Shown: in pieces, positions 11,097 through 54,024 of the stretch | Layout of the letters: each line of letters starts with the position of its first letter | How positions within the stretch are numbered: the stretch's first letter is position 1 | Source: Naegleria gruberi | Lineage: Eukaryota | Length of the DNA stretch: 64,000 nt | Strand: one strand, 5' to 3' | NCBI GenBank assembly: GCA_000004985.1 | Contig: GG738865.1 | Position numbers and translations under genes: made by a program | Notes under the pieces: generated by a model | Database searches by the model: none | What the model was told of the DNA's origin: nothing | Seen by the model: only the letters and a program-made list of their open reading frames with translations

Positions 11097-13193
11097 ATGA
11101 ATAGACGATCATCTTCTAATTGCTTTATCAATTATTTGCTGATGAATAGTCATCATCATGGCACTACAAGTACAATAAGGAGAACAATGATGAGGAGTTT
11201 AATGAATAATAATAGTGGATTGACAACAACAAAAACAACATTAATTAATAATAATAACCGAGGAGGACATTTGAATATATTGTCATCATCATCAGTATCT
11301 GTTAATAATAATAATAATAGGAGAGAATTTAAAACAAATTATTGGACACAAAGTAAACAGGAAAATGGGAATATTGTTGATCATTCATTGGTCGAAGCCT
11401 TGATTACTTTCGAAAGTTCGAGAAAAAGTGTAAATGATAATTTATCAATTCTTTGTAATCAGAGTGACATTACTGAAGAGAGATTGACATCAATATTAAA
11501 TCAAAAGATTATTGAAAAGTTAGATCCATCAACAATATTTACAATGATGCAATTCTATGCCAAGAAGGGAAATGCTCCAAAAGTTAAGGAATTATATAGA
11601 CACATCAAGAATCCAAATGAGGAATCAAAAAAGCAACTTGTTAAATTGTTGGCTTTGGCTGGTTCTAGATTGAAAACAAAAACAAATCCAGAATCAATCA
11701 CACCAAAGGTGGCAAAGAATTTAATGAAAACAATGCCTTCAAATATCAATGTAGCTCATAAGAGAAGTATTTCTGAGCTTAAAGAGGTAGAGGATGCCTT
11801 GAAAAAGAAAAAAGACAGTGTATCATATACACACAGTGTTGTAATTGAAGCATTCTCAATTAGAGGTAACATGAAACAAGCTGAAACTTATTTTGAAAAT
11901 ATTCAACATGTGAATACTGAAGTTTTAAATTCAATGATTGATGGTTGGATTAGAACTTTGACCAAGAGTGATAAATCTCTCATTGAAGGCCAATCTGAAA
12001 ACACAAGTGAAGAATCATTTAATTTTGTAAAGGGCAGAGTGAATTATTATTTTGATTTATTTGACTTGTACAAGATCAAGAGAGATGTGAGAACCTATGC
12101 CTATTTTCTCAGATTTAAATTTATTGAAGCTCTTTTCGTGGATCCTAAAGATCCAGATGTAAATTCAATTGTAGATTTAATAGAGAGTATGATAAGCAAG
12201 GATAAAATTTCACCAGACAATTATTTCGTCTCGACATTCCTTGCCAGACTGAATACCATACACTCCAAAGCCAAAGTGAAAAAGCTTTACAGTACCTATA
12301 AGAAACACCTCCTCAAAGTTAAAGTCACAAATGCCAATAATTTAGCCATCCTCACCACACTTGCCAACTCGAAATGTATTCCAGAAGCTCTTTCATTGTT
12401 TGAACACTTGAAAAAGTCACTTCCAACAAATGAAAAGACCACTGCTTATGAAATTATGATTTCCATGTTCTTGGAGAGTGATGACGAGGCAGCTATTGTG
12501 TTAATTGATGACATGATTCAAAAGAAAGTACCTAGATCCTCTAAAACTTACTACTCTGTTCTCAACTACTTTTCACAACAAGGCAATCACAAGGCAGTGT
12601 CCAAATATTTCCAACTCTTACAGGTTGAGGGGGTTTCGTTGACTCCAGAAATTCTCAAAGTATCCCTAAAGAGTTTAGCTTTAACGAGAAGTAAGAAACA
12701 AGTAATGGACATTCTCAAGAGAGCAGAAACTGAGAATTATCTCACTGAGGAAAGTTGTTCTTCATTTATTGGAACTTATGGACTTTTGGAAGAATTGGAA
12801 GAAGCTGAAAGAGTTTTCAATCTTTTCAAAGATACAAACATGCTGGATATTTACAATGAAATGTTATGTACATATGTTAATCACTCATGTGTTGGTGATG
12901 CCATCACTCTCTATTTGGATTATCCAATGAAGGGTGATATTTTCACGTATGAAACTCTTGTTGGAGCTTTGGGTATTTCAAAAGAGTATTCTGCCATTTT
13001 ACAAATTCACAAAATCATGATCAAGCTTGGTATTCGACCAACTTTTAAATATTATGATCAACTCATTGATATTCTCACCAAGGAACCAGTAACGGATCCA
13101 GAAGTTAAATCCTTCCTCCAATCTCTCCCAGATGAAATGTCTCAATTCAACATTGGACAAATTGAACAATTAATCATGAGACTTTTGTTTTAA
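11097..13193 (+). CDS. Pentatricopeptide-repeat (PPR)-like helical repeat protein, probably organellar (698 aa).
   Basis: N-terminal R/S-rich presequence. Repeated ~35-aa helical units with PPR-like motifs (YTHSVVIEAFSIRGNMKQAETYFENI; TAYEIMISMFLESDDEAAIVLIDDMIQK; FTYETLVGALGISKEYSAILQIHKIM). Confidence 0.55.
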   Translation: MNRRSSSNCFINYLLMNSHHHGTTSTIRRTMMRSLMNNNSGLTTTKTTLINNNNRGGHLNILSSSSVSVNNNNNRREFKTNYWTQSKQENGNIVDHSLVEALITFESSRKSVNDNLSILCNQSDITEERLTSILNQKIIEKLDPSTIFTMMQFYAKKGNAPKVKELYRHIKNPNEESKKQLVKLLALAGSRLKTKTNPESITPKVAKNLMKTMPSNINVAHKRSISELKEVEDALKKKKDSVSYTHSVVIEAFSIRGNMKQAETYFENIQHVNTEVLNSMIDGWIRTLTKSDKSLIEGQSENTSEESFNFVKGRVNYYFDLFDLYKIKRDVRTYAYFLRFKFIEALFVDPKDPDVNSIVDLIESMISKDKISPDNYFVSTFLARLNTIHSKAKVKKLYSTYKKHLLKVKVTNANNLAILTTLANSKCIPEALSLFEHLKKSLPTNEKTTAYEIMISMFLESDDEAAIVLIDDMIQKKVPRSSKTYYSVLNYFSQQGNHKAVSKYFQLLQVEGVSLTPEILKVSLKSLALTRSKKQVMDILKRAETENYLTEESCSSFIGTYGLLEELEEAERVFNLFKDTNMLDIYNEMLCTYVNHSCVGDAITLYLDYPMKGDIFTYETLVGALGISKEYSAILQIHKIMIKLGIRPTFKYYDQLIDILTKEPVTDPEVKSFLQSLPDEMSQFNIGQIEQLIMRLLF

Positions 13194-13409: not shown

Positions 13410-15455
13410 ATGCCTCCACCTCCTCCTTCAACATCTTCATCATCAACACCAAGAGGAAAGGCAATGCGATCTGCTTTTCTACCACCCGAAACCCCATTAT
13501 CAACCAAAATTAGAAAACCAATCAGGGCCACTCCTTCTTCTTCAACTTCCTCATCGACCAATGGCACTAAGCTACAAGAACAAGAACAGCTACAAGACCA
13601 ATGTATTAAAGTGTACATTAGAATTCGTCCGAACGATGATCATGACCAATTACAAATTGAATTTCTCAACAATTCTTCAATTCAAGTCACGTGTAAAAAT
13701 CAAGAAAAGGCAGATACACCAAAAGTATTCCTATTTGATCAGGTTTTGGATGAAAATGTTTCTCAGCAACAAGTTTTTGATTTGATTGGTGTTCCAGTTG
13801 TTGAAGAACTTCTTCAGGGGTTCAATGCTTCCATTTTAGGTTATGGACATACAGGATCTGGTAAAACATTTACAATGGGAACTAATCTTCATGAGATTGC
13901 AGATTCCTTTGAGAGTGGCAATTTGCCTGCTGCTTGTGGTTTATTGCCACGAATTGTTGAAAGGTTGCTAAACAGGAAGAAAGTGGACGAACAATTAAGC
14001 TGCTCCTTATTTGAAATTTATAATGGAGGAGTTTATGATTTATTTGGAGAGGCCAGCAAAAAGTGTAAGGTCAAGTATTCAAACGGTGTGGATGTTGTGA
14101 CCAATGCTAAAAAGAAGCTTATTCATTCACTGTCTGATCTTTCTTCCATTTCGTCTGGTTTAAAAAGGAGACATCAAAGTGCAACTGGACAAAATCTATC
14201 CTCATCAAGATCACACTGCATCTTTAGATTGTTTATCACAACTGCAGACAATACTGAAAGATGCCTAAACATGGTTGACTTGGCTGGATCTGAACGTCAA
14301 AAAACTGCCAACATTCACGCTGATAAAATGTTACTAGATGAAGCAAATTACATTAATACTTCATTGACAGTTTTGAAAAGATGCATTGAAGCAGTCTATA
14401 ATAATCAATCCAATACTGATAAGAAGACACTAGTTCCATACAGGGAAGATAATCTTGCCTTATTGTTGCATTCAACTTTGGAAGGAAATTCAAAAACTTT
14501 CTTTATTGGAAATATTGGAACTGCAAGTGAATCGATATCAACTTTGAATTATGCACAAACGGCAAGAAAGATTAAAAAGATGACTAGCAAGTTGAGTTCA
14601 ATGTTGAAGAAGAAATCAGGAGGATTGTTTGAAGAGGAAATTGAAAAGTTAAAGAAAGAGTTGGAAGAAACTAAGGGTAAATTGGATGAGGAAAGAGATA
14701 GCAAGACCAAACATATTGAAGAACTCTCACAGAAAATTGCATTATTAGAAACTAAACAACAGGAAGCTAATGAAATTCTCAAACAATCGAATACCATTAT
14801 AGAAGAGATGCAAATCAGAGACGATTCTCTGAAAGAAATTTGCTCAGAAAAAGAAGAAATTATTTCAAATCTCTTTGAAGAATTGTCAAAAGCCAGAAAA
14901 GAAAGCGAGCTCTTGGAGAAGGACAATTCAACATTGAAGAGTGAAAATTCAATTCTTTTGGAAGCAATTGAAAATCAATGTGAAATCATTAGACAACGAG
15001 ATAAGGAACATGATTCAGCTTTCCAAAATTTGAAAGAGCAACTAGACGAATATCAAAAACAGTCATCCTCAAAGACTCTTACAATTCAAACTCTGCGAGA
15101 TGAATTGAAAAAAAAGGACAAAATCATACAGAGAAAATCTTCAACTACTGCAGAACAACTTTATCAGACCATTGAAAATTTACTTAAAACAATTGAAGAT
15201 CAAAAGAAGACAATTCACATGTTTTTGAATGGAACGATGGAAGTTGTGGATATTGATAAGGAAGAAGCTCATGATGGTAATTCATGTGATAGTGATGATG
15301 ATGATGAGAAGGTGATGTCTGATTCTCCAGTTGTGAAATCAAACAAACGAAAGGTAATTTCTCCACTCCAAAATATTGTCTATGAATCAACAGATGAAAA
15401 TAATGAACCAGAATGTAAATATTCAAAATCTGATTTATTAGAATATTTAAAATAA
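13410..15455 (+). CDS. Kinesin family member: N-terminal motor domain plus coiled-coil tail (681 aa).
   Basis: P-loop GYGHTGSGKTFTMGT, switch I SSRSHCIF, switch II DLAGSER. Long coiled coil after residue ~400. Overlapping ORFs 13249..13785 and 14549..14926 are out-of-frame shadows. Confidence 0.85.
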   Translation: MPPPPPSTSSSSTPRGKAMRSAFLPPETPLSTKIRKPIRATPSSSTSSSTNGTKLQEQEQLQDQCIKVYIRIRPNDDHDQLQIEFLNNSSIQVTCKNQEKADTPKVFLFDQVLDENVSQQQVFDLIGVPVVEELLQGFNASILGYGHTGSGKTFTMGTNLHEIADSFESGNLPAACGLLPRIVERLLNRKKVDEQLSCSLFEIYNGGVYDLFGEASKKCKVKYSNGVDVVTNAKKKLIHSLSDLSSISSGLKRRHQSATGQNLSSSRSHCIFRLFITTADNTERCLNMVDLAGSERQKTANIHADKMLLDEANYINTSLTVLKRCIEAVYNNQSNTDKKTLVPYREDNLALLLHSTLEGNSKTFFIGNIGTASESISTLNYAQTARKIKKMTSKLSSMLKKKSGGLFEEEIEKLKKELEETKGKLDEERDSKTKHIEELSQKIALLETKQQEANEILKQSNTIIEEMQIRDDSLKEICSEKEEIISNLFEELSKARKESELLEKDNSTLKSENSILLEAIENQCEIIRQRDKEHDSAFQNLKEQLDEYQKQSSSKTLTIQTLRDELKKKDKIIQRKSSTTAEQLYQTIENLLKTIEDQKKTIHMFLNGTMEVVDIDKEEAHDGNSCDSDDDDEKVMSDSPVVKSNKRKVISPLQNIVYESTDENNEPECKYSKSDLLEYLK

Positions 15456-15458
15456 AAA

Positions 15459-16529
15459 ATGGGAAATAGTCAACCAAGTAGAAATTTCACAAAAAATCAA
15501 TTAACAACACCAGTTTCCATTCCGATATTGTTTCTTATCGGAGATAAATCAAGTGGAAAGACGCAAACTATTCTTTCATATAACCACAGTTTCGAATTAA
15601 ACAGACGAACCCGACATTTAATTATTGAACTTTCGCGATGCATTCTTGGTTATGAAGCTCATCAAATTTCCAAGATTGACGAAAAACATTACAAAAGCAT
15701 TGCAAAAAAGTTAAAAAAAACTTGGAATTCCAAAAAGGAAAATTCTTTAAAATTCAACGCTGAAAATTTTAAAAGAAATTTAAATTATTTTGAAATTTCA
15801 ATTGAAAAACTTTTGGAAATTCTTGAAAAAATTGTAAAGGACGAATTTAGTACTGAATTGACCAATTCAGAAATTCAAATTATTGAACAAGCTCAACTAT
15901 TAATTCATCCATTTGCTTATTTCCTGGAAAATTGGTCAATTGGAACACAAACTAATCAATTAGTTGAATTATGTGCAATTCCAAGATCGAAATTATCACT
16001 TGATTCAGAAACATTTTCATGGATGAAAGAAAGAGAAAATTCTGTCGTTTTGGTTTTCATTTCATTGATTGGATGGTTGGATGAAACAGAGTATAATTTT
16101 CACAATTTTGATGAGATTGGAAAGGTGCTTGGACACGTTTCGAATAAGAAATTCGAATTTGTTTTTACAAAACCAGATCTGTTGTGGAAAATTCTGGCAA
16201 AAGGAGTGAAATATAAACATCAGGTGAAAGATACAAGAGCAGAGTTATTGGATATGGAAACTAAATACGGATTCGATCGAATAGTTAGCTCAATAATTTC
16301 AAAATACGAAACTGAACTACTGGCAGAATGCAATGATGCACAGAAACCTTTCAACTATCACATAGCAAGAACCAATTCATTGGACGAAATCTCAAAAGTG
16401 ATTGAAAGTGCCACTTCTGAATTTTCTCAATTTATTTCACCATTTATTATTCGAAAGACTTTATTCCAACCAGCACATTCCAATCAATTATTCTATTCAG
16501 ATCTATTAATATTGTGCATCTACCCTTAA
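15459..16529 (+). CDS. Divergent G-protein alpha-subunit-like protein with degenerate GTPase motifs (356 aa).
   Basis: Starts MGNSQ... with a Gα-type P-loop [14 protein letters not shown] (compare LLLLGAGESGKSTI) and a ~115-aa helical insertion. Later blocks parallel Gα: WSIGTQ for DVGGQ, [14 protein letters not shown] for [28 protein letters not shown] for [42 protein letters not shown] for [22 protein letters not shown]. The switch I Arg/Thr, NKxD and TCAT motifs are not conserved. Confidence 0.5.
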   Translation: [356 protein letters not shown]

Positions 16530-16883: not shown

Positions 16884-19162
16884 ATGAAGTGGTTCTCTAC
16901 TACACATGTGTTTTGTTTGTTGTTGATTTTGTTGGTAGTGGTAGAAAGTGAGTTGACAATTCTGTCAAGCGAAGATTTGGCATTTGACAGTTCCAGGAGT
17001 AATCAGAGTGTTATTGAAAGGAAATTATTATCAATTGACGAAAATATAAAGAGAATCAATATTTCTAACACAAATTTCCTTCAAAATTTAGCAAATGACA
17101 ATTGGCAGGTAATCGCATCAACTCAATCACTAGTAATTGTTAGTTTACAGAATTTAACAACCATTGATGATGTTCTTCTACTCGCATCACGTAAACTAAT
17201 TAAAATTGGTGTACACACTATTATTGGAATAGACATTAGGTTTGTGGAGACGAAACTTCAACTAAACTCGACGAAACACTTCTACAAGACTGAGAGAATG
17301 GACAGAACATCTTCTGATTGTTGGATGGGAAATGTTTTCGAATATTTCGATGTTGTAATTTCAAGTGATTTGTTTCTTCCAATTCTCATAAGACAAAATC
17401 GAGATTGTTATGTCACAACCCCAGTGTTTAGAACATTAGATTATCAAGATTTGAGTTTAGTTTCATTTTCTCCCTTTGAAATAGTAATAGCAAACTCAAA
17501 AGCATCATTTAATGATCTTGTCACCTATCAATATGAAATAATGAACGACATGTTCAAAAATTTACAAATTTCACAACAAGTTTGTGAATCAACGACAAGT
17601 TCATACAAGGAACATGATTATTCAGTGTTGAGAATTGAACAATTTTTCACAAATATTTCAGCGGATGATTTTTTATTTATTGTGGAATATCATGCGTTGG
17701 ATAATTGGACACTAAATCAAACATTTACTAATTTGGCATTTGAAATGGTGTTAAATAGAACTGGATATAGTGTTGATAAGCTCAATTCTATGAAAAGATC
17801 ATTCTTTCCCACAAAATGTTACTCCTGTCTAACGTCATCTTGTATGTGGGAAGACAGAGCTAGTCCAGTAGCTTCAAATGCAGATGGTGTCAGTATTGGA
17901 GGTGGTATCTCTCTATTCATTGCATTATTTTTCTATTTTCCTTCTTTAATTCTATTCAGAAACAGAGAATCGGTCAAGATTCGTCTCATTGTTCCATACG
18001 TTTCGGTTCTGAGTCCAGTTTTCATCATGTTGATTCAGATTTTTCAACTTATCAAGCCGTGTTATTTGCTCTATCAGATTGCTGTTAATTTTCTATCCTG
18101 TTGGTCGATTATCATTTATTTTTTGATTTGTATTCGATTCGTCTTGTTGAGAAATATTTATACGCTAGTTCTGTATCTTAATGAGAGACATATCAAGATT
18201 TTAAAATGGTTAGTGAGTAAGAGAGTTGCAAGTATTGGATCCTTTCTGATGGGTGTGTTGATTGGATGTTTAGTTTCCCTCGTTCCCCTTGTTGGATTTT
18301 ATGATGTAAGTTGTTATTCGAATCCCAAACTAAACATCTTCTTTGAAAATAGGAATTCTTTGGAAATCGTGCTGCCATACAATGTGCTTTCATCACCTTT
18401 GGAATCACTGTAGCCATTGCAACATTATCATTACTAGCACTTGTCATTCATTTCCTCTTCAAGATTCCAATAATTTGGAGAAGAGGTCTATTATATATTC
18501 TATTCTTTGATGATCCATTTCAAATCAAGTTTGATATTTTATTCTTCTCACTCAATACTATAGTCATTACAGTTTATTTATTCACAGAGGCGAATCAGAA
18601 TTATGTTTACAGTATTTTTGCACCACTCCTATCTCACAATATTGGAATGTTGTATAGAGGAGGTTTAGTTTTGATTATTGAATGGTTTAAAACGATTTAT
18701 TTTAGAAAACAACTGAATATGACTGAGAAGGAGAAAGTGGACGAATTGGTTCTTCATTTGGAAAATCCAGAATTCTTCAATTTAATGAAGGAATTTGTTG
18801 CAAAGGAAACTTCACTTGAGAACTTGAAATTTTACGAAGAATTGAAACAAATAGAAAGAATGAGTCAATCTGACAAGAATCCCAAAATCAGTCACGAAGA
18901 AATGATTCGAATAAGGGACAAGTACTTTAAAGAAAATGTTCTATACGAATTGAATATTGGAGGCCAAACTAAGCAATCGTTTCACAATCTCGTAGCAACA
19001 GCTGCAAATCCAAATGAAGAAGTTCGCCTTAAAGATTTGAAATTCATTCTCGATGAAGAATTGATGGGAAATTTGAGTGATGCCTATTTGAGATTGAAAC
19101 AACAACCAGGTTTTAAGAGATGGAAAGTAGCTCACAATATTTATATTGAGGAAAAGGAATAG
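16884..19162 (+). CDS. Seven-transmembrane receptor-like protein with a C-terminal RGS domain (7TM-RGS). Exons 16884..18305 and 18353..19162.
   Basis: Signal peptide and ~300-aa N-glycosylation-rich ectodomain, then seven hydrophobic helices. A 47-nt intron (GTAAGT at 18306, AG at 18351-18352) joins ORF 16884..18413 in frame to ORF 18647..19162. The C-terminus carries RGS-domain signatures (FFNLMKEFVAKETSLENLKFYEELKQIE...IRDKYF, compare EFSEENLEFW). Confidence 0.65.
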
Positions 19163-25680: not shown

Positions 25681-26793
25681 ATGTCTACAAAAGGTGAATC
25701 GACCCGTTTGAAACCAAAGAATGCACCTCTCATTGAGGAAATTAGTGATGATGAAGAAGAAGTCACAATTGAAGAAGAAAAACCAAAGATTTCAAAGAGA
25801 CAAGAAAAGAGGGAGAGAAAGGCTTCAAGAATGATGGATCCTGCTGCTACTGAAGACAATGATTCCGAAGAATTAAAAGCCCTCAAAAGAGAAGTTCTCA
25901 AAAAAGCATTCAGCACATTTAAAGAGACTGAGGAAAAGAAACAAACAAACAAGTCAGCAATTGCCTACAACTTTATTGTCTTTGTTTTCATTGTCTCAGT
26001 GCTATCCTTATTTATTTTTCAAGCATTTATCATGAAGATTGCACCAACAGATGTAATTACTCCAAAAGAAACTCAGGAATTATTCTCTGGCAACAGCTCA
26101 ATCAAGGCCTTTAATATTCTATTAGGTATGGCATACTCTCCTAGACTTACTCTCCTCTATTTGGCTGTCACTGATAGACAAGTTATTGTGGATCTTTTTG
26201 ACAAGTCTGGATTAGTTTTTGGAAAGGACAAGAACAGCTATCTTGATTTGAGTCTTAAGGTGATGGGGTGTGCCATCTCTCCACGTTTATTCTTCATTTT
26301 ACAGAGTGCCAACGTGTTGATTGATAGACATTATGATCTTGTTGAGAGTGGAACAGTTTTTTCTGTAATTTCAGAACAACTTCAAGACTTTGGAGGTCTC
26401 TACTCTTTGGTTACTGACTCCTTCTGGAAGAATGACAAGACATTTGAGACTCTCTTCTTTTCATTCTCAATTTTCTGTCAAGTAGTATTTTTAATCTTTG
26501 ACTTTGCTTCGAGAATTGGATTTTTCAAGAGAGGAGTTAAATTCTTAATCATGCTTCTCCTTTGGGTTGTATTGAACTCTTACTTTATCCCTCCAATGAT
26601 TTTGTCTTACATGTTCAAGATTACCTATTTCATTCAGCCTGGATTAACTTTGATCATGTACTTGACTGAAAGTTTGGAAATCAAATACGAAAAGCAATTA
26701 CTCGATTCTCAAGAAAGAGAACAAAGAGAAGCCTTCTTAAAGGATGCTCGTGAAACTTTGAAAAAGGCTCAACAATCCAAAAAGCAAGAATAA
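25681..26793 (+). CDS. Hypothetical multi-pass membrane protein with an acidic N-terminal tail (370 aa).
   Basis: SDDEEEVTIEEEK acidic cluster followed by several TM helices. No family recognised. Confidence 0.45.
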   Translation: MSTKGESTRLKPKNAPLIEEISDDEEEVTIEEEKPKISKRQEKRERKASRMMDPAATEDNDSEELKALKREVLKKAFSTFKETEEKKQTNKSAIAYNFIVFVFIVSVLSLFIFQAFIMKIAPTDVITPKETQELFSGNSSIKAFNILLGMAYSPRLTLLYLAVTDRQVIVDLFDKSGLVFGKDKNSYLDLSLKVMGCAISPRLFFILQSANVLIDRHYDLVESGTVFSVISEQLQDFGGLYSLVTDSFWKNDKTFETLFFSFSIFCQVVFLIFDFASRIGFFKRGVKFLIMLLLWVVLNSYFIPPMILSYMFKITYFIQPGLTLIMYLTESLEIKYEKQLLDSQEREQREAFLKDARETLKKAQQSKKQE

Positions 26794-34217: not shown

Positions 34218-36179
34218 ATGTTCAAACAATTCCCAGCAGATGTACTTCCCCATCTGTTTAGTTTTTTCTCTCTGAGAGAAATCTATTATAATCTCCAATT
34301 TGTTAGCAAGGAATGGCTAGAAATTGCCAACGTACCTAATGAATATAACAAAGTACGAAGAAGAAACAATGTTGGTGGAGGAGACAATAGTGATAATGGT
34401 TATCATCAGTCGTGGTCAATTTATTTGGTTTCGTCATTCAGAAGTGGAAAGCAATTTAAAGAAATTAATCGAATGATGAGTGATTTGGAGAGCGATGCTT
34501 CTGATGAGGAAATTTCAAGGGCCATGTGGGATGATCAACATACACAATTGATCTTTTCATGTATTGAAGGAAAGATGGTGCATGGCTTGCATGCTGGTAA
34601 TCCACTTGTTAAAAAGGATGGTATTGGTGAAATGATCAAATCAATGCAATTCCTCTATGGAGTTCATTATGATAAGGAGCTTGTTAAGAGAATTGTTTCA
34701 GATAGTAACTCAATCAAGTCATGTCTCTATGTAGAGAATGAAGAATTTGCTAAAAACTTTCAAGAAAGAGTGGTTGAAAATGGTAGCGGTTTAAGTGATC
34801 TGAAGGAAAAGTTCTATTTTATGGATTTGTGTTATTTGGACTCCTCTTTGAAAAATGTTAGTGATGAGGTATTCATTTACAAAATATTTGAGAGGGTGTT
34901 TTCTTTGGATTTAGATAACGATTGGTCCAATGTATTTCCCTGTATTCGAAAATGCAAATTATTGAAACAGAAACTAGAAAAATGTAATGGAGAAACTATT
35001 AGAAAAATGTTTCAAATTGAAATGGAGATTGCCTTGAAAATGTTACTCAATATTCTCAAGTGGGGTTACCATCTATCTGATTTGAACTTTCTATACTCCT
35101 TTGCAAGTTATTGTAAATTCACACAAAGCCAATCTGAAGAGATAGTGAAATTGTCTGATTCTCTTATTAATGAAATTAATAGAGTTGTATTGATTGAAGA
35201 AGTGGTACTCACTCCAATCATTGAAGATGACTACATCTCCACCAGCATATTGGATCAGTTCAAGAATAACAAACTTATTGAAATGGTCAACCAAAATAAT
35301 GCACATCCACTCGAAGAAATCGAATATAGAAATCTCTATACTAACACATCTTGCTTTTTAAAATTTCTTCATAGAAAATTTTCAATAGGAGAAATGTTTA
35401 GAACAACAATTAACAAAAGAAAAAAGCTACTAGATGCAGAGAATAGATTGAATGGATATTTCGTTTTTTGCATTGTCAACCAGAGAGACATGGAAAAGAG
35501 AGCAAAATTTTTGGAAAAGATTGAACAGGCATTTATTTATGCAACTGAGCTGAGGGATTTCAGAACTGCTTTCTTTTTCTCGACTCTATTGAATAATGCT
35601 TGTGTTTATAGATTACGTAAAACTCGTGAACACGTGGATAGATCAAGTAATTTCAAAAATCTGTTCGAGGAGAGCCAGAAAACAATTTCTTCAGACGGAA
35701 ATTATAGAAAATTATACCAAACTGTTGAAAAATATGCCAAAGAAGCCAATATTCCAATGTAAGTTTGTAATTTCTGGTTAATTCGATTCAACTCATTATG
35801 GTATATTGATAGCCATCTTCCATTGACAAATTTAACGTTTGTTATTGAAGGAAACTCAAATCAAATTACTATTCTCTTTTTGAGTTACAGATTTATAGCA
35901 CAATTTGGAAGATCATTGAGGATACCATCTAAACTTGGTAACTATGAGAGGAATTTATTCGATAAGAAAACTATTAAAATTATTGACAAGAAGGGAGTTA
36001 AGCATTCAATCAAATCATTTTTTGAAGGAGATGATGATACTTCACACATGCATTATGAACTACAAGCTGATCAACAAGTGTTGGAACTTTTTGTTTTCAT
36101 TGCATTTAATTTCCAACTAAAAGAAGATTCAGAGTTGTACAAAATGAGTTTAGAATGTGAACCAAGACAAGCCAAATAA
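34218..36179 (+). CDS. F-box plus RasGEF (Cdc25-homology) domain protein. join(34218..35758, 35891..36179).
   Basis: N-terminal F-box-like FPADVLPHLFSFFSLREIYYNLQFVSKEWLEIA. RasGEF catalytic-domain blocks (RAKFLEKIEQAFIYATELRDFRTAFFFSTLLNNACVYRLRKTREHV...NYRKLYQTV...NIP). A 132-nt intron (GTAAGT at 35759, acceptor TTACAG at 35890, phase 2) links to the canonical RasGEF C-terminus ...ELYKMSLECEPRQAK. Confidence 0.75.
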
Positions 36180-52601: not shown

Positions 52602-53064
52602 CTGGACATGTAATGGAGCTGACTACAATTCATTTAGCTTAGAAAGAACAGCTCATTTTCTTCAAGTTTGACACAAAAGAAACACAATTTTACTGATGCT
52701 GTCATTCAAACAAAAAAAGAAAGCATTCATCCTGAATGATTAGAGCTTTACCATAGACTTCCAATAAAAAAAGTACGAATGCCAACCTTAAACCAGAAAA
52801 TTACTCTAGTGTTTGAAGTCGTTTTGTGGTATACCTGATGACATTTTTCCATTGAAGAGAACCTTATGTTTTTCAACAACAGAAGTTAACATTCAACCTA
52901 TTTCCTTCATTGATTTACAAATTGGTATAAACAAAGAACAAAAATGATTAGAAATGCACTTGTACAGGAATTGGTTCATTTGTCAACCACTTGAACTGTT
53001 TCTATTGTCAGATTTTCATTGTAAAATAACTTGTTTGCAATTTCCGCAAATCAAGAGAAAAAAA

Positions 53065-54024
53065 ATGAATGCAAAACTCACCATCAAACGCAAGCAATCA
53101 CAATCATCTTCATCGTCTGCATCAGCTTCAGCATCACAATCTTCGCAATCTTCAACAATAAATTCTTCCACAAGTTGTATACAAAATAGTCAAAATGATG
53201 AAGCAGATGATGATGATATTGTGGAGGTGGCTCCATCATTATCGGGAAGTAGTACATTGCACTTTCCGATTAGGACAATGGTATCAATTCATAGGAATGT
53301 AGTGCTACAGATTACATTATTTGACAAGTTGAGGGATAAATCTACATTAAAGTCTTCATTGGCTTCGACTTGGTTTAAAAAGGAGCACCTGGATGAGTTC
53401 TACACTTATTTGAAATACTTTTTGAAGAAACAAATTTATCAGGAAATCAAGTTTATTCCAACAGAACCAGGTAGGATTGAATTGAAAATAGAATTACCTC
53501 CAGAAAAGACGATTCAAGTAATTAAATGTAAAACCATTCAATTTACCTATGAGTGGAAAAAGACATATTCTAATTTTTTCATGTTGAGGAGAAAGGATAC
53601 ACAAGAGGAGTATGAAAGAGAATTATTGAAAGCACAACTTACAAGAAAGCCATCTGTGCCTATTCTTATTGAGGATGATCCACAAGGTCCAGTCAAACAC
53701 AATTTGGATTTAAGTGACGAGGAAACACCAAACAAGAAGCAAAAATCAATTCACAATTTGGATTTGAGTGATGAGGAAAATGTGAAACAAACCCCACCAA
53801 GAAAGAAAAAGAAACCAACTGTTATTATTGAGGATGACGATTCTTCATCATCTGAAGAGGAAGATGTAGAATTAAAGGAAGATATTGAGTTAAACTCTCC
53901 ACCTTTCAAAAAGTTTAAACAAAGTCTGGTATCTTGGCGGTACCAGCTACTTGTCTATTTGGAACCAAAGGAAAAGGATATTCTGGAATTGACAGGAGCT
54001 AAATCAAAAAGCAAATTCTTTTAA
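53065..54024 (+). CDS. Hypothetical acidic/Ser-rich protein with duplicated HNLDLSDEE motif (about 320 aa from the ATG at 53065).
   Basis: ORF 52954..54024. A-rich ATG context (AAAAAAAATG) at 53065. Tandem 20-aa repeat VKHNLDLSDEETPNKKQKS/IHNLDLSDEENVKQTPPRK. Acidic SSSSEEEDVE tract. Confidence 0.45.
   Translation: MNAKLTIKRKQSQSSSSSASASASQSSQSSTINSSTSCIQNSQNDEADDDDIVEVAPSLSGSSTLHFPIRTMVSIHRNVVLQITLFDKLRDKSTLKSSLASTWFKKEHLDEFYTYLKYFLKKQIYQEIKFIPTEPGRIELKIELPPEKTIQVIKCKTIQFTYEWKKTYSNFFMLRRKDTQEEYERELLKAQLTRKPSVPILIEDDPQGPVKHNLDLSDEETPNKKQKSIHNLDLSDEENVKQTPPRKKKKPTVIIEDDDSSSSEEEDVELKEDIELNSPPFKKFKQSLVSWRYQLLVYLEPKEKDILELTGAKSKSKFF

Follow-up and report, generated by a model that had tools for sequence, protein, structure and literature searches.

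The question raised by an open reading frame (ORF) at positions 15459..16529 of a 64,000-nucleotide (nt) stretch of Naegleria gruberi DNA (contig GG738865.1 of assembly GCA_000004985.1; the whole stretch is referred to below as the window) is whether it encodes a protein derived from Gα, the α subunit of heterotrimeric G proteins, that has left the GTPase cycle, as proposed in an earlier note on this DNA. The ORF and all of its features described below are on the plus strand. It is intronless and runs from ATG to stop, and the predicted protein of 356 residues begins with MGNSQ, the Gα-like length and the MG N-terminus reported previously being confirmed by the ORF list. We read the ORF as a true coding gene absent from public annotation, the product of which would belong with three other proteins to a lineage-specific and fast-evolving N. 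gruberi subclade of Gα origin in which the GTPase machinery decays stepwise, and would be a non-cycling pseudo-GTPase, possibly still able to bind nucleotide. Taken jointly, these statements are given a probability of about 0.6.

Descent from a heterotrimeric G-protein α subunit, the central claim of the earlier note, is well supported, yet by transitive homology only: the link passes through two divergent Gα paralogues of N. gruberi, and every direct comparison failed. The Pfam G-alpha family (PF00503, curated gathering threshold 48.8 bits) was matched neither by the query protein nor by its full-length closest paralogue, EFC44932, even with E values up to 10, and the search of PDB sequences with the query gave no Gα match; what these Pfam and PDB searches returned was noise (THOC7, AAA_22, YrdC, uL15). 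Profiles built from canonical Gα only, run with hhalign and hmmsearch, did not separate the query from shuffled controls. Word-indexed searches with the query alone, or with a profile of query and paralogue, found nothing past the paralogue, and an exhaustive phmmer search of 1.84 billion proteins yielded two matches only, namely an environmental copy of EFC44932 (labelled P0003, EFC44932 itself being P0005; E 6e-16) and EFC44299 (P0004; E 4.1e-4). The latter is a full-length member of PF00503 (145 bits, E 3.1e-42), which also matches Gα crystal structures at 1e-13, and a further N. gruberi Gα, P0006, is likewise a full-length member (185 bits, E 2.2e-54). Compared pairwise, the query gives p values of 2.3e-13 with P0004 and 1.5e-9 with P0006, and the matches fall within the Gα domains of the two proteins. 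With a hidden Markov model (HMM) built from P0004 and P0006, the query scored 48.8 bits and the paralogue 39.3 bits, the top score among approximately 1130 decoys, which included 1000 shuffles of the query, being 6.8 bits. It is because of these significant matches to two bona fide PF00503 members that the predicted protein is taken to be of Gα descent.

Once the paralogue is included, the relation to the family at large also emerges. Local hhalign alignment of query plus paralogue with a seven-sequence Gα set gave a probability of 92.8% and an E value of 4e-7 over query residues 183-351, pairing TKPD with NKKD (LFLNKKDLF), YHIARTN with THFTCAT, and SETFSW with SERKKW. The β1/P-loop segment (query residues 23-42 against Gα 35-54) reached an hhalign score of 29.2, to be compared with 14.6±2.3 for shuffles. 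G1, β4, G4 and G5 are collinear with Gα, so far bearing out the collinearity that had been noticed through the β-strand blocks; the helical region (residues 40-182 against the Gα helical domain) gave no signal above shuffles (12.7 versus 13.0±2.3). In length (356 residues, versus 354 in Gαi1) and in the order of its parts, i.e. β1-P-loop, an insert of about 120 residues predicted to be helical, β4, β5-G4, β6-G5 and α5, the predicted protein is like canonical Gα. Moreover, four divergent N. gruberi proteins (the query, EFC44932, P0004 and P0006) have in common features that are not found in canonical Gα: NKxD is replaced by xKPD, some 13 residues are inserted after αG, and the C-terminus is extended, with FISP and [FLY][ST]D[IL] motifs.

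The state of the individual motifs was assessed with the numbering of Gαi1, the sequence of which was checked against the PDB (799.5 bits over 354 residues). The segment comprising β1, the P-loop (G1) and the start of α1 (residues 23-39, 15525..15575) is assigned from hhalign against Gα 35-54 and from identity with the paralogue. Within it the Gα-type P-loop that had been recognized, GDKSSGKT, is confirmed at residues 28-35; the Walker A pattern GxxxxGKT is intact, in register with GAGESGKS at Gαi1 40-47, with Gly42 changed to Lys30, Glu43 to Ser31, and Ser47 to Thr. Here the paralogue has nine consecutive residues, SSGKTQTIL, in common with the query. In Gαi1, the G42V substitution abolishes GTPase activity, and G42R blocks the active conformation (PMC9283941).

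The region in which switch I, β2-β3 and G3 would be expected (residues 159-182, 15933..16004) was examined in three alignments that differ in register, none of which contains RxxTxGI or DxxGQ. For switch I, no RxxTxGI motif (Arg178, Thr181) is present between residues 145 and 182 in any alignment, in agreement with the initial observation that the switch I Arg and Thr are not identifiable. For G3, the first register, i.e. the local hhalign alignment extended without gaps, places DVGGQ opposite SKLSL (residues 177-181); the second, from L-INS-i, has a deletion of 8-10 residues across DVGGQRSE; the third, from a forced near-global hhalign run, gives TQT--NQ followed by a 14-residue insertion, with near-zero posterior confidence. 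Thus, the DVGGQ/DxxGQ motif is missing in each of them. The proposal that WSIGTQ (residues 159-164) replaces DVGGQ depends on the register and found no support, the gapless extension of the confident local alignment pointing to SKLSL; WSIGTQT would more plausibly sit at the switch I/β2 position. Nor is there support for an insertion of about 18 residues past G3, which the confident alignment does not need and which only the forced one produces, with 14 residues. Gαi1 residues Arg178, Thr181, Asp200, Gly203 and Gln204 have no equivalents in the query.

Downstream of this gap the Gα framework is resumed with a putative remnant of the switch II helix and β4 (SETFSW...VVLVFISL, residues 183-203, 16005..16067), aligned by local hhalign to S206-ERKKW211...AIIFCVAL of Gαi1, and with β5 and G4 (residues 230-242, 16146..16184), aligned to LFLNKKDLF. 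The replacement of NKKD by TKPD is confirmed: TKPD (residues 237-240) lies in the place of NKKD, with Lys238 and Asp240 invariant in the multiple alignment and Asn changed to Thr. A T-K-x-D sequence is a functional form of G4 in dynamin and in the GTPases of the signal recognition particle (SRP). An insertion of about 13 residues of the GVKY type follows αG (residues 247-259, 16197..16235); in the L-INS-i alignment it recurs in the three remaining divergent Gα-like proteins of N. gruberi and nowhere else. At β6/G5, HIARTN (residues 301-306, 16359..16376) aligns with H322-FTCAT of Gαi1. Here the His that precedes the motif is conserved and TCAT itself is not kept; its counterpart is ARTN (residues 303-306), so that the earlier identification of IART (residues 302-305) was one residue out of register. 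The pattern KPF.[YF]HIAR.N around G5 is conserved in the paralogue. Thus, alignment with the Gα paralogues of the organism upheld both the homology and the loss of motifs, and corrected the equivalences at G3 and G5, which had been mis-registered.

The closest relative of the query is EFC44932 (XP_002677676, NAEGRDRAFT_48704, annotated as ‘predicted protein’), with an E value of 6e-16 and a full-length identity of 31-33%. Its gene lies on the scaffold that carries the ORF (820 kb), at a distance of some 30 UniProt accessions. The two proteins share the MGN start (in the ORF of the ENA contig), KPF.[YF]HIAR.N, FI[ST]P, the terminal SD[IL] and a further stretch of 20 residues; both lack switch I and G3 and both go undetected by Pfam G-alpha. 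They differ at about 69% of the residues, with several insertions or deletions in the helical region and near the lost G3, and in EFC44932 the Gly42 position is taken by Ser instead of Lys and the Trp at the switch II position is missing. Against an overall identity of 31%, the three most conserved 15-residue windows fall on G1 (residues 24-45, 67%), β5/G4 (residues 226-252) and β6/G5 (residues 292-310, 67%); β5/G4 is the most conserved block, reaching 80% and including 11 identical residues.

Two observations concern the models of EFC44932 itself. As annotated, it starts at an internal Met (MVGGSSSGKT) within the β1/P-loop, and in the ENA contig (1326-1440) the frame runs 29 residues further upstream, to MGNKQATQ...; the reference model is probably truncated at the N-terminus, because this upstream open frame begins with MGN, matching the ORF of the window. 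The environmental copy (ENA metagenome contig ERZ929261 k127_594630, 1326-2385) is 98.5% identical over residues 1-268; beyond this point, about 33 codons over β6/G5 (…IISSII…HIARANLLNE) are missing and the reading frame changes, which is either a frameshifting deletion, marking pseudogenization in that strain, or an assembly artefact.

By taking into account P0004 and P0006, which show significant homology to the query over β4-α5, a gradation in the loss of the GTPase machinery is obtained. These two proteins share with the query the xKPD sequence, the post-αG insertion (GVKY-like), FISP and the C-terminal [FL][ST]D[IL] extension, and they too lack the catalytic Gln, which is replaced by Lys or Arg, and the Arg finger. 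Unlike the query, they are recognized by Pfam, have the canonical spacing of the helical domain, and keep the GG of G3 and NRMDES. P0006 has HCRTTGI at switch I, DVGGR at G3 and VKPD at G4, thus keeping TTGI and DVGG with the catalytic Gln and Arg lost. In P0004, switch I is without Arg, G3 reads TAGGK, with only the GG kept, and G4 reads SKPD. In EFC44932 and in the query, neither switch I nor G3 is found, and G4 is TKPD.

From the comparison of motifs, the following picture of the protein can be drawn. It would probably keep a Ras-like domain fold with a helical insert, and it may still hold a guanine nucleotide, the P-loop, G4 and the G5 strand and loop being retained. Coordination of Mg2+ and of the γ-phosphate through DxxG and the switch I Thr would be impossible; GTP hydrolysis by the Gα mechanism would be lost, with no equivalents of Gln204 and Arg178 and with Lys at the Gly42 position, and so would the GTP-driven transition of switch II. 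The combination of GTPase ancestry with loss of the Gln, the Arg, DxxG and the switch I Thr, by which a pseudo-GTPase is defined, is what is found in the predicted protein. The earlier description of a degenerate hydrolysis apparatus therefore holds whichever register is adopted, DxxGQ and RxxTxGI being absent and Lys being present at the Gly42 position in all of them. That of degenerate nucleotide binding was overstated: GxxxxGKT is intact, TKPD keeps its Lys and Asp, and G1, G4 and G5 are the best conserved parts. These elements provide the contacts with the phosphates and the base, and the switches are gone; the pocket, and with it nucleotide binding, is probably kept. The protein would then serve as a non-cycling adaptor or scaffold insensitive to the state of the nucleotide, with a logic like that of the plant XLG proteins.

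The XLGs are Gα-derived and nucleotide-independent, and still bind Gβγ and RGS1 (PMC8584482). XLG1-3 resemble the query in their origin and in the erosion of the nucleotide-binding and catalytic motifs, and the XLG pathway includes a 7TM-RGS protein (PMC8584482), the analogy being one of mechanism only. In contrast with the query, the XLGs arose independently in plants and carry a long N-terminal domain with a Cys-rich region and a nuclear localization signal; furthermore, their binding to Gβγ and RGS has been demonstrated experimentally. In Naegleria, deviant catalytic motifs have already been reported for some Gα proteins and taken to suggest reduced or lost nucleotide-dependent activity (PMC8584482), and Gα is known to have diversified in a lineage-specific manner in N. 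gruberi (PMC3971589). Thus, eroded Naegleria Gα proteins were known, and the one described here is a further, unannotated and unusually extreme case that lies, with EFC44932, below the limit of detection by Pfam. Among pseudoGTPases, those of the Rnd/RhoH type are constitutively nucleotide-bound and those of the CENP-M type are nucleotide-free. Like the query, they descend from the GTPase fold, have lost catalytic residues and are presumed to act as scaffolds; they belong to other GTPase families. If expressed, the protein would extend the known series of catalytically eroded Naegleria Gα to a point at which standard domain models no longer detect them, and Pfam-based counts of G-protein repertoires would come out too low for proteins of this kind. 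The series found in this one genome, from P0006 through P0004 to EFC44932 and the query, amounts to a natural experiment in which the switches and the catalytic residues could be lost and the P-loop, G4 and G5 kept. For the N. gruberi reference annotation a missing gene model is flagged, which by itself opens no long-standing question.

That the ORF appears to be unannotated emerges from several lines. The exact protein sequence has no entry in a public collection of about 15 billion proteins, and no self-hit was obtained either in the word-indexed protein search or in the exhaustive phmmer search, here against 1.84 billion representatives; it follows that no annotated N. gruberi model overlaps the ORF, as such a model would have turned up. 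In GenBank, EFC44949 is the kinesin encoded immediately upstream and EFC44951 a plus-strand gene at 25681, and the single accession between them is taken by a 7TM-RGS gene. Between D2VDS2 and D2VDS7, UniProt has four accessions, which correspond to the 7TM-RGS gene and to three minus-strand ORFs, leaving no slot for this one. By exact match, self-hit and accession numbering, the ORF thus seems to be missing from the N. gruberi protein sets of GenBank, UniProt and EukProt. The likely reason, we infer, is that its ATG lies only 3 nt past the kinesin stop; annotation pipelines that allow one model per locus would often miss genes this near to a neighbour.

A number of points weigh against the reading of the ORF as a functional gene for a non-cycling, Gα-derived protein. 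Direct similarity to canonical Gα was nil in the Pfam, PDB-sequence and canonical-profile tests. Transcription and translation of the ORF are predictions made from DNA sequence, and with only 3 nt between the kinesin stop and the ATG there is no room for a promoter between the two genes. Searches for orthologues in other organisms and metagenomes, by phmmer against 1.84 billion proteins, by profile search and by a pattern scan of metagenomes, in which 302 pattern matches were obtained and 0 confirmed, gave none, so that purifying selection is not measurable as a ratio of nonsynonymous to synonymous substitution rates (dN/dS). The frameshifted environmental copy of the paralogue hints that the subfamily may be dispensable. 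G1, G4 and G5 are also elements of the core fold, so that their conservation is no proof of nucleotide binding. The identity of the helical domain has no support at the sequence level. Both AlphaFold (AF2) models are unusable, with predicted local distance difference test (pLDDT) values of 40.5 for the single sequence and 41.1 for an 8-sequence alignment, and the structural matches obtained from them with Foldseek are partly circular, Gα sequences being present in the input alignment of the model, and were set aside as evidence.

Several of these points would equally be expected of a non-functional relic, i.e. of a Gα-derived gene that is unexpressed or died recently and has not yet accumulated stops: the absence from the public gene set, the 3-nt gap with no room for a promoter of its own, the lack of orthologues elsewhere, the frameshift of the paralogue in an environmental Naegleria contig, and the extreme decay of the catalytic motifs. 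This alternative survives best, and is nonetheless considered unlikely. An open frame of 356 codons has a chance probability of about 1.3e-12 at the local base composition (31% GC). The codon usage of the ORF is gene-like, scoring 0.255 bits per codon in frame 0, against 0.25-0.52 for the neighbouring genes and negative values for all of the remaining five frames. The alignment with EFC44932 is continuous over the full length, without stop or frameshift at 31% identity, and with 67-80% in the G1, G4 and G5 blocks, a pattern expected of long-term purifying selection. The missing annotation is, as stated above, also what pipelines skipping genes so near to a neighbour would produce. Thus, the long intact ORF, the codon usage and the blockwise conservation against the paralogue may reflect maintenance by selection, and favour a genuine gene.

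If the gene is genuine, its product might still be an active, cycling NTPase that uses non-canonical or partner-supplied catalytic residues, or that prefers another nucleotide. The intact Walker A motif, the retention of Lys and Asp in G4, and the fact that the blocks of the nucleotide pocket are the most conserved are all in keeping with such an activity, and several GTPase families do hydrolyse GTP without the Gln of Ras and Gα, T-K-x-D being serviceable in dynamin and SRP. What makes it improbable is that no DxxG or Walker B-like Asp-x-x-Gly is present in any register, that the switch I Thr is missing, and that a Lys occupies the position of Gly42, at which G42V kills the GTPase activity of Gαi1 and G42R blocks its activation (PMC9283941).

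The position of the ORF with respect to the kinesin gene suggests a further alternative. At the junction (15453..15461, plus strand), the sequence TAA-AAA-ATG comprises the kinesin stop, one codon and the start of the ORF in one shared reading frame, both start coordinates being divisible by 3; with such an arrangement one may ask whether expression is nested, bicistronic or by readthrough. A longer product joining kinesin and the Gα-like protein, formed by readthrough of the TAA, or termination and reinitiation on the kinesin mRNA, would be compatible with the shared frame and with the presence of only the TAA and AAA codons before the ATG. A shared frame, though, is a 1-in-3 chance; the annotated kinesin EFC44949 terminates at this stop; EFC44932, with the same MGN N-terminus, is encoded by a separate gene, which is preceded by an A-rich region of its own and has a divergent neighbour 180 nt away; and no result points to TAA readthrough in Naegleria. 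A combined product is therefore regarded as very improbable. Finally, that the protein is a generic P-loop NTPase with a coincidental resemblance to Gα, as might be argued from the sub-threshold AAA_22 match (E 0.19) found in Pfam in place of G-alpha and from the failure of canonical Gα profiles to detect it, is hardly credible in view of the highly significant matches inside the Gα domains of two bona fide Gα-family proteins, of the collinearity of G1, β4, G4 and G5, and of the shared clade-specific insertions and deletions.

Returning to the Gα-derived protein, the insert of about 120 residues that separates the P-loop from the switch region (residues 36-158, 15564..15932) has the position and size of the Gα helical domain and is predicted to be all-α. 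Secondary-structure assignment with DSSP on both AF2 models gave only helices between about residues 34 and 158, at low confidence. Its identification as a helical domain would rest on position, size and the all-α prediction; a helical-domain-sized insertion, as initially described, is thus borne out as regards size and predicted structure, and not by sequence similarity, which is no better than that of shuffles. The best local match, opposite the conserved Gα Trp131 motif IKRLWKDSG, was discarded for the same reason. Structure prediction followed by Foldseek, which had been suggested as a check of the Gα assignment, returned Gα chains as the top 8 PDB matches; with pLDDT of approximately 41, E values of at least 0.017, TM-scores of about 0.3 and a root-mean-square deviation of about 18 Å, these are non-significant.

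The termini also depart from those of Gαi1. Before β1 there are 22 residues, versus 34 in Gαi1; aligned with Gαi1, the pre-β1 region is shorter by about 14 residues, contains prolines and is non-helical by prediction. The N-terminal sequence is MGNSQP, in which MG is present; a Pro at position 6 breaks the usual pattern for N-myristoylation (PROSITE PS00008). At the other end, about 25 extra residues follow α5, forming an extension (16431..16526) that is identified in the alignments by the FISPFII motif and the terminal [FY]SD[IL] and that is common to P0004, P0005 and P0006 and not found in canonical Gα. Because of the short, non-helical N-terminus and the extended C-terminus, canonical coupling of the predicted protein to Gβγ and to receptors is doubtful. 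A similar short motif ends all four of the divergent N. gruberi Gα-like proteins (residues 346-356 of the query; one form is LTDIQIIT...), and resembles the start of a BTB domain. That [FY]SD[IL] is such a start, continued in a downstream exon, was ruled out, since the 354-nt spacer to the next gene gave no Pfam hit and has non-coding codon statistics.

The next gene, directly downstream on the plus strand (16884-18305 and 18353-19162), encodes a 7TM-RGS protein, with a Pfam RGS match of E 2.7e-8. A 47-nt GTAAGT...TAG intron joins its two ORFs with the frame restored, yielding a 743-residue product that comprises a signal peptide, some 310 extracellular residues, seven hydrophobic segments and, at the C-terminus, the RGS domain, encoded at 18647-19162; the spliced 743-residue model has no exact match among public proteins. 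7TM-RGS proteins are the GTPase-activating proteins for Gα in Naegleria (PMC9283941), and on this account the adjacency of a Gα-derived gene is suggestive, as a single post hoc observation. A far-reaching proposal could be built on it, according to which the ORF and EFC44932 would found a Gα-derived family invisible to Pfam, with switch I and switch II cut out and the G1/G4/G5 pocket under selection, whose members act as permanently nucleotide-loaded, non-switching adaptors; the ORF protein would work with the downstream 7TM-RGS protein independently of nucleotide, as a protist counterpart, independently evolved, of the plant XLG/7TM-RGS1 pair. As a whole, this is regarded as quite unlikely.

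As for the rest of the window, phmmer comparison of the query with all six-frame ORFs of the window revealed no second copy, and another ORF of 356 residues, at 52954-54024, is not a relative. Upstream, the ORFs at 11097-13193 and 13410-15455 are residue for residue EFC44948, a PPR protein, and EFC44949, the kinesin, of the kinesin-1 type, both on the N. gruberi scaffold of 820,293 nt; the window is thus nuclear DNA of N. gruberi. A further signalling gene is present at 34218-35762 (plus strand); in the N. gruberi annotation it is EFC44953, a Ras guanine-nucleotide exchange factor of the CDC25 type.

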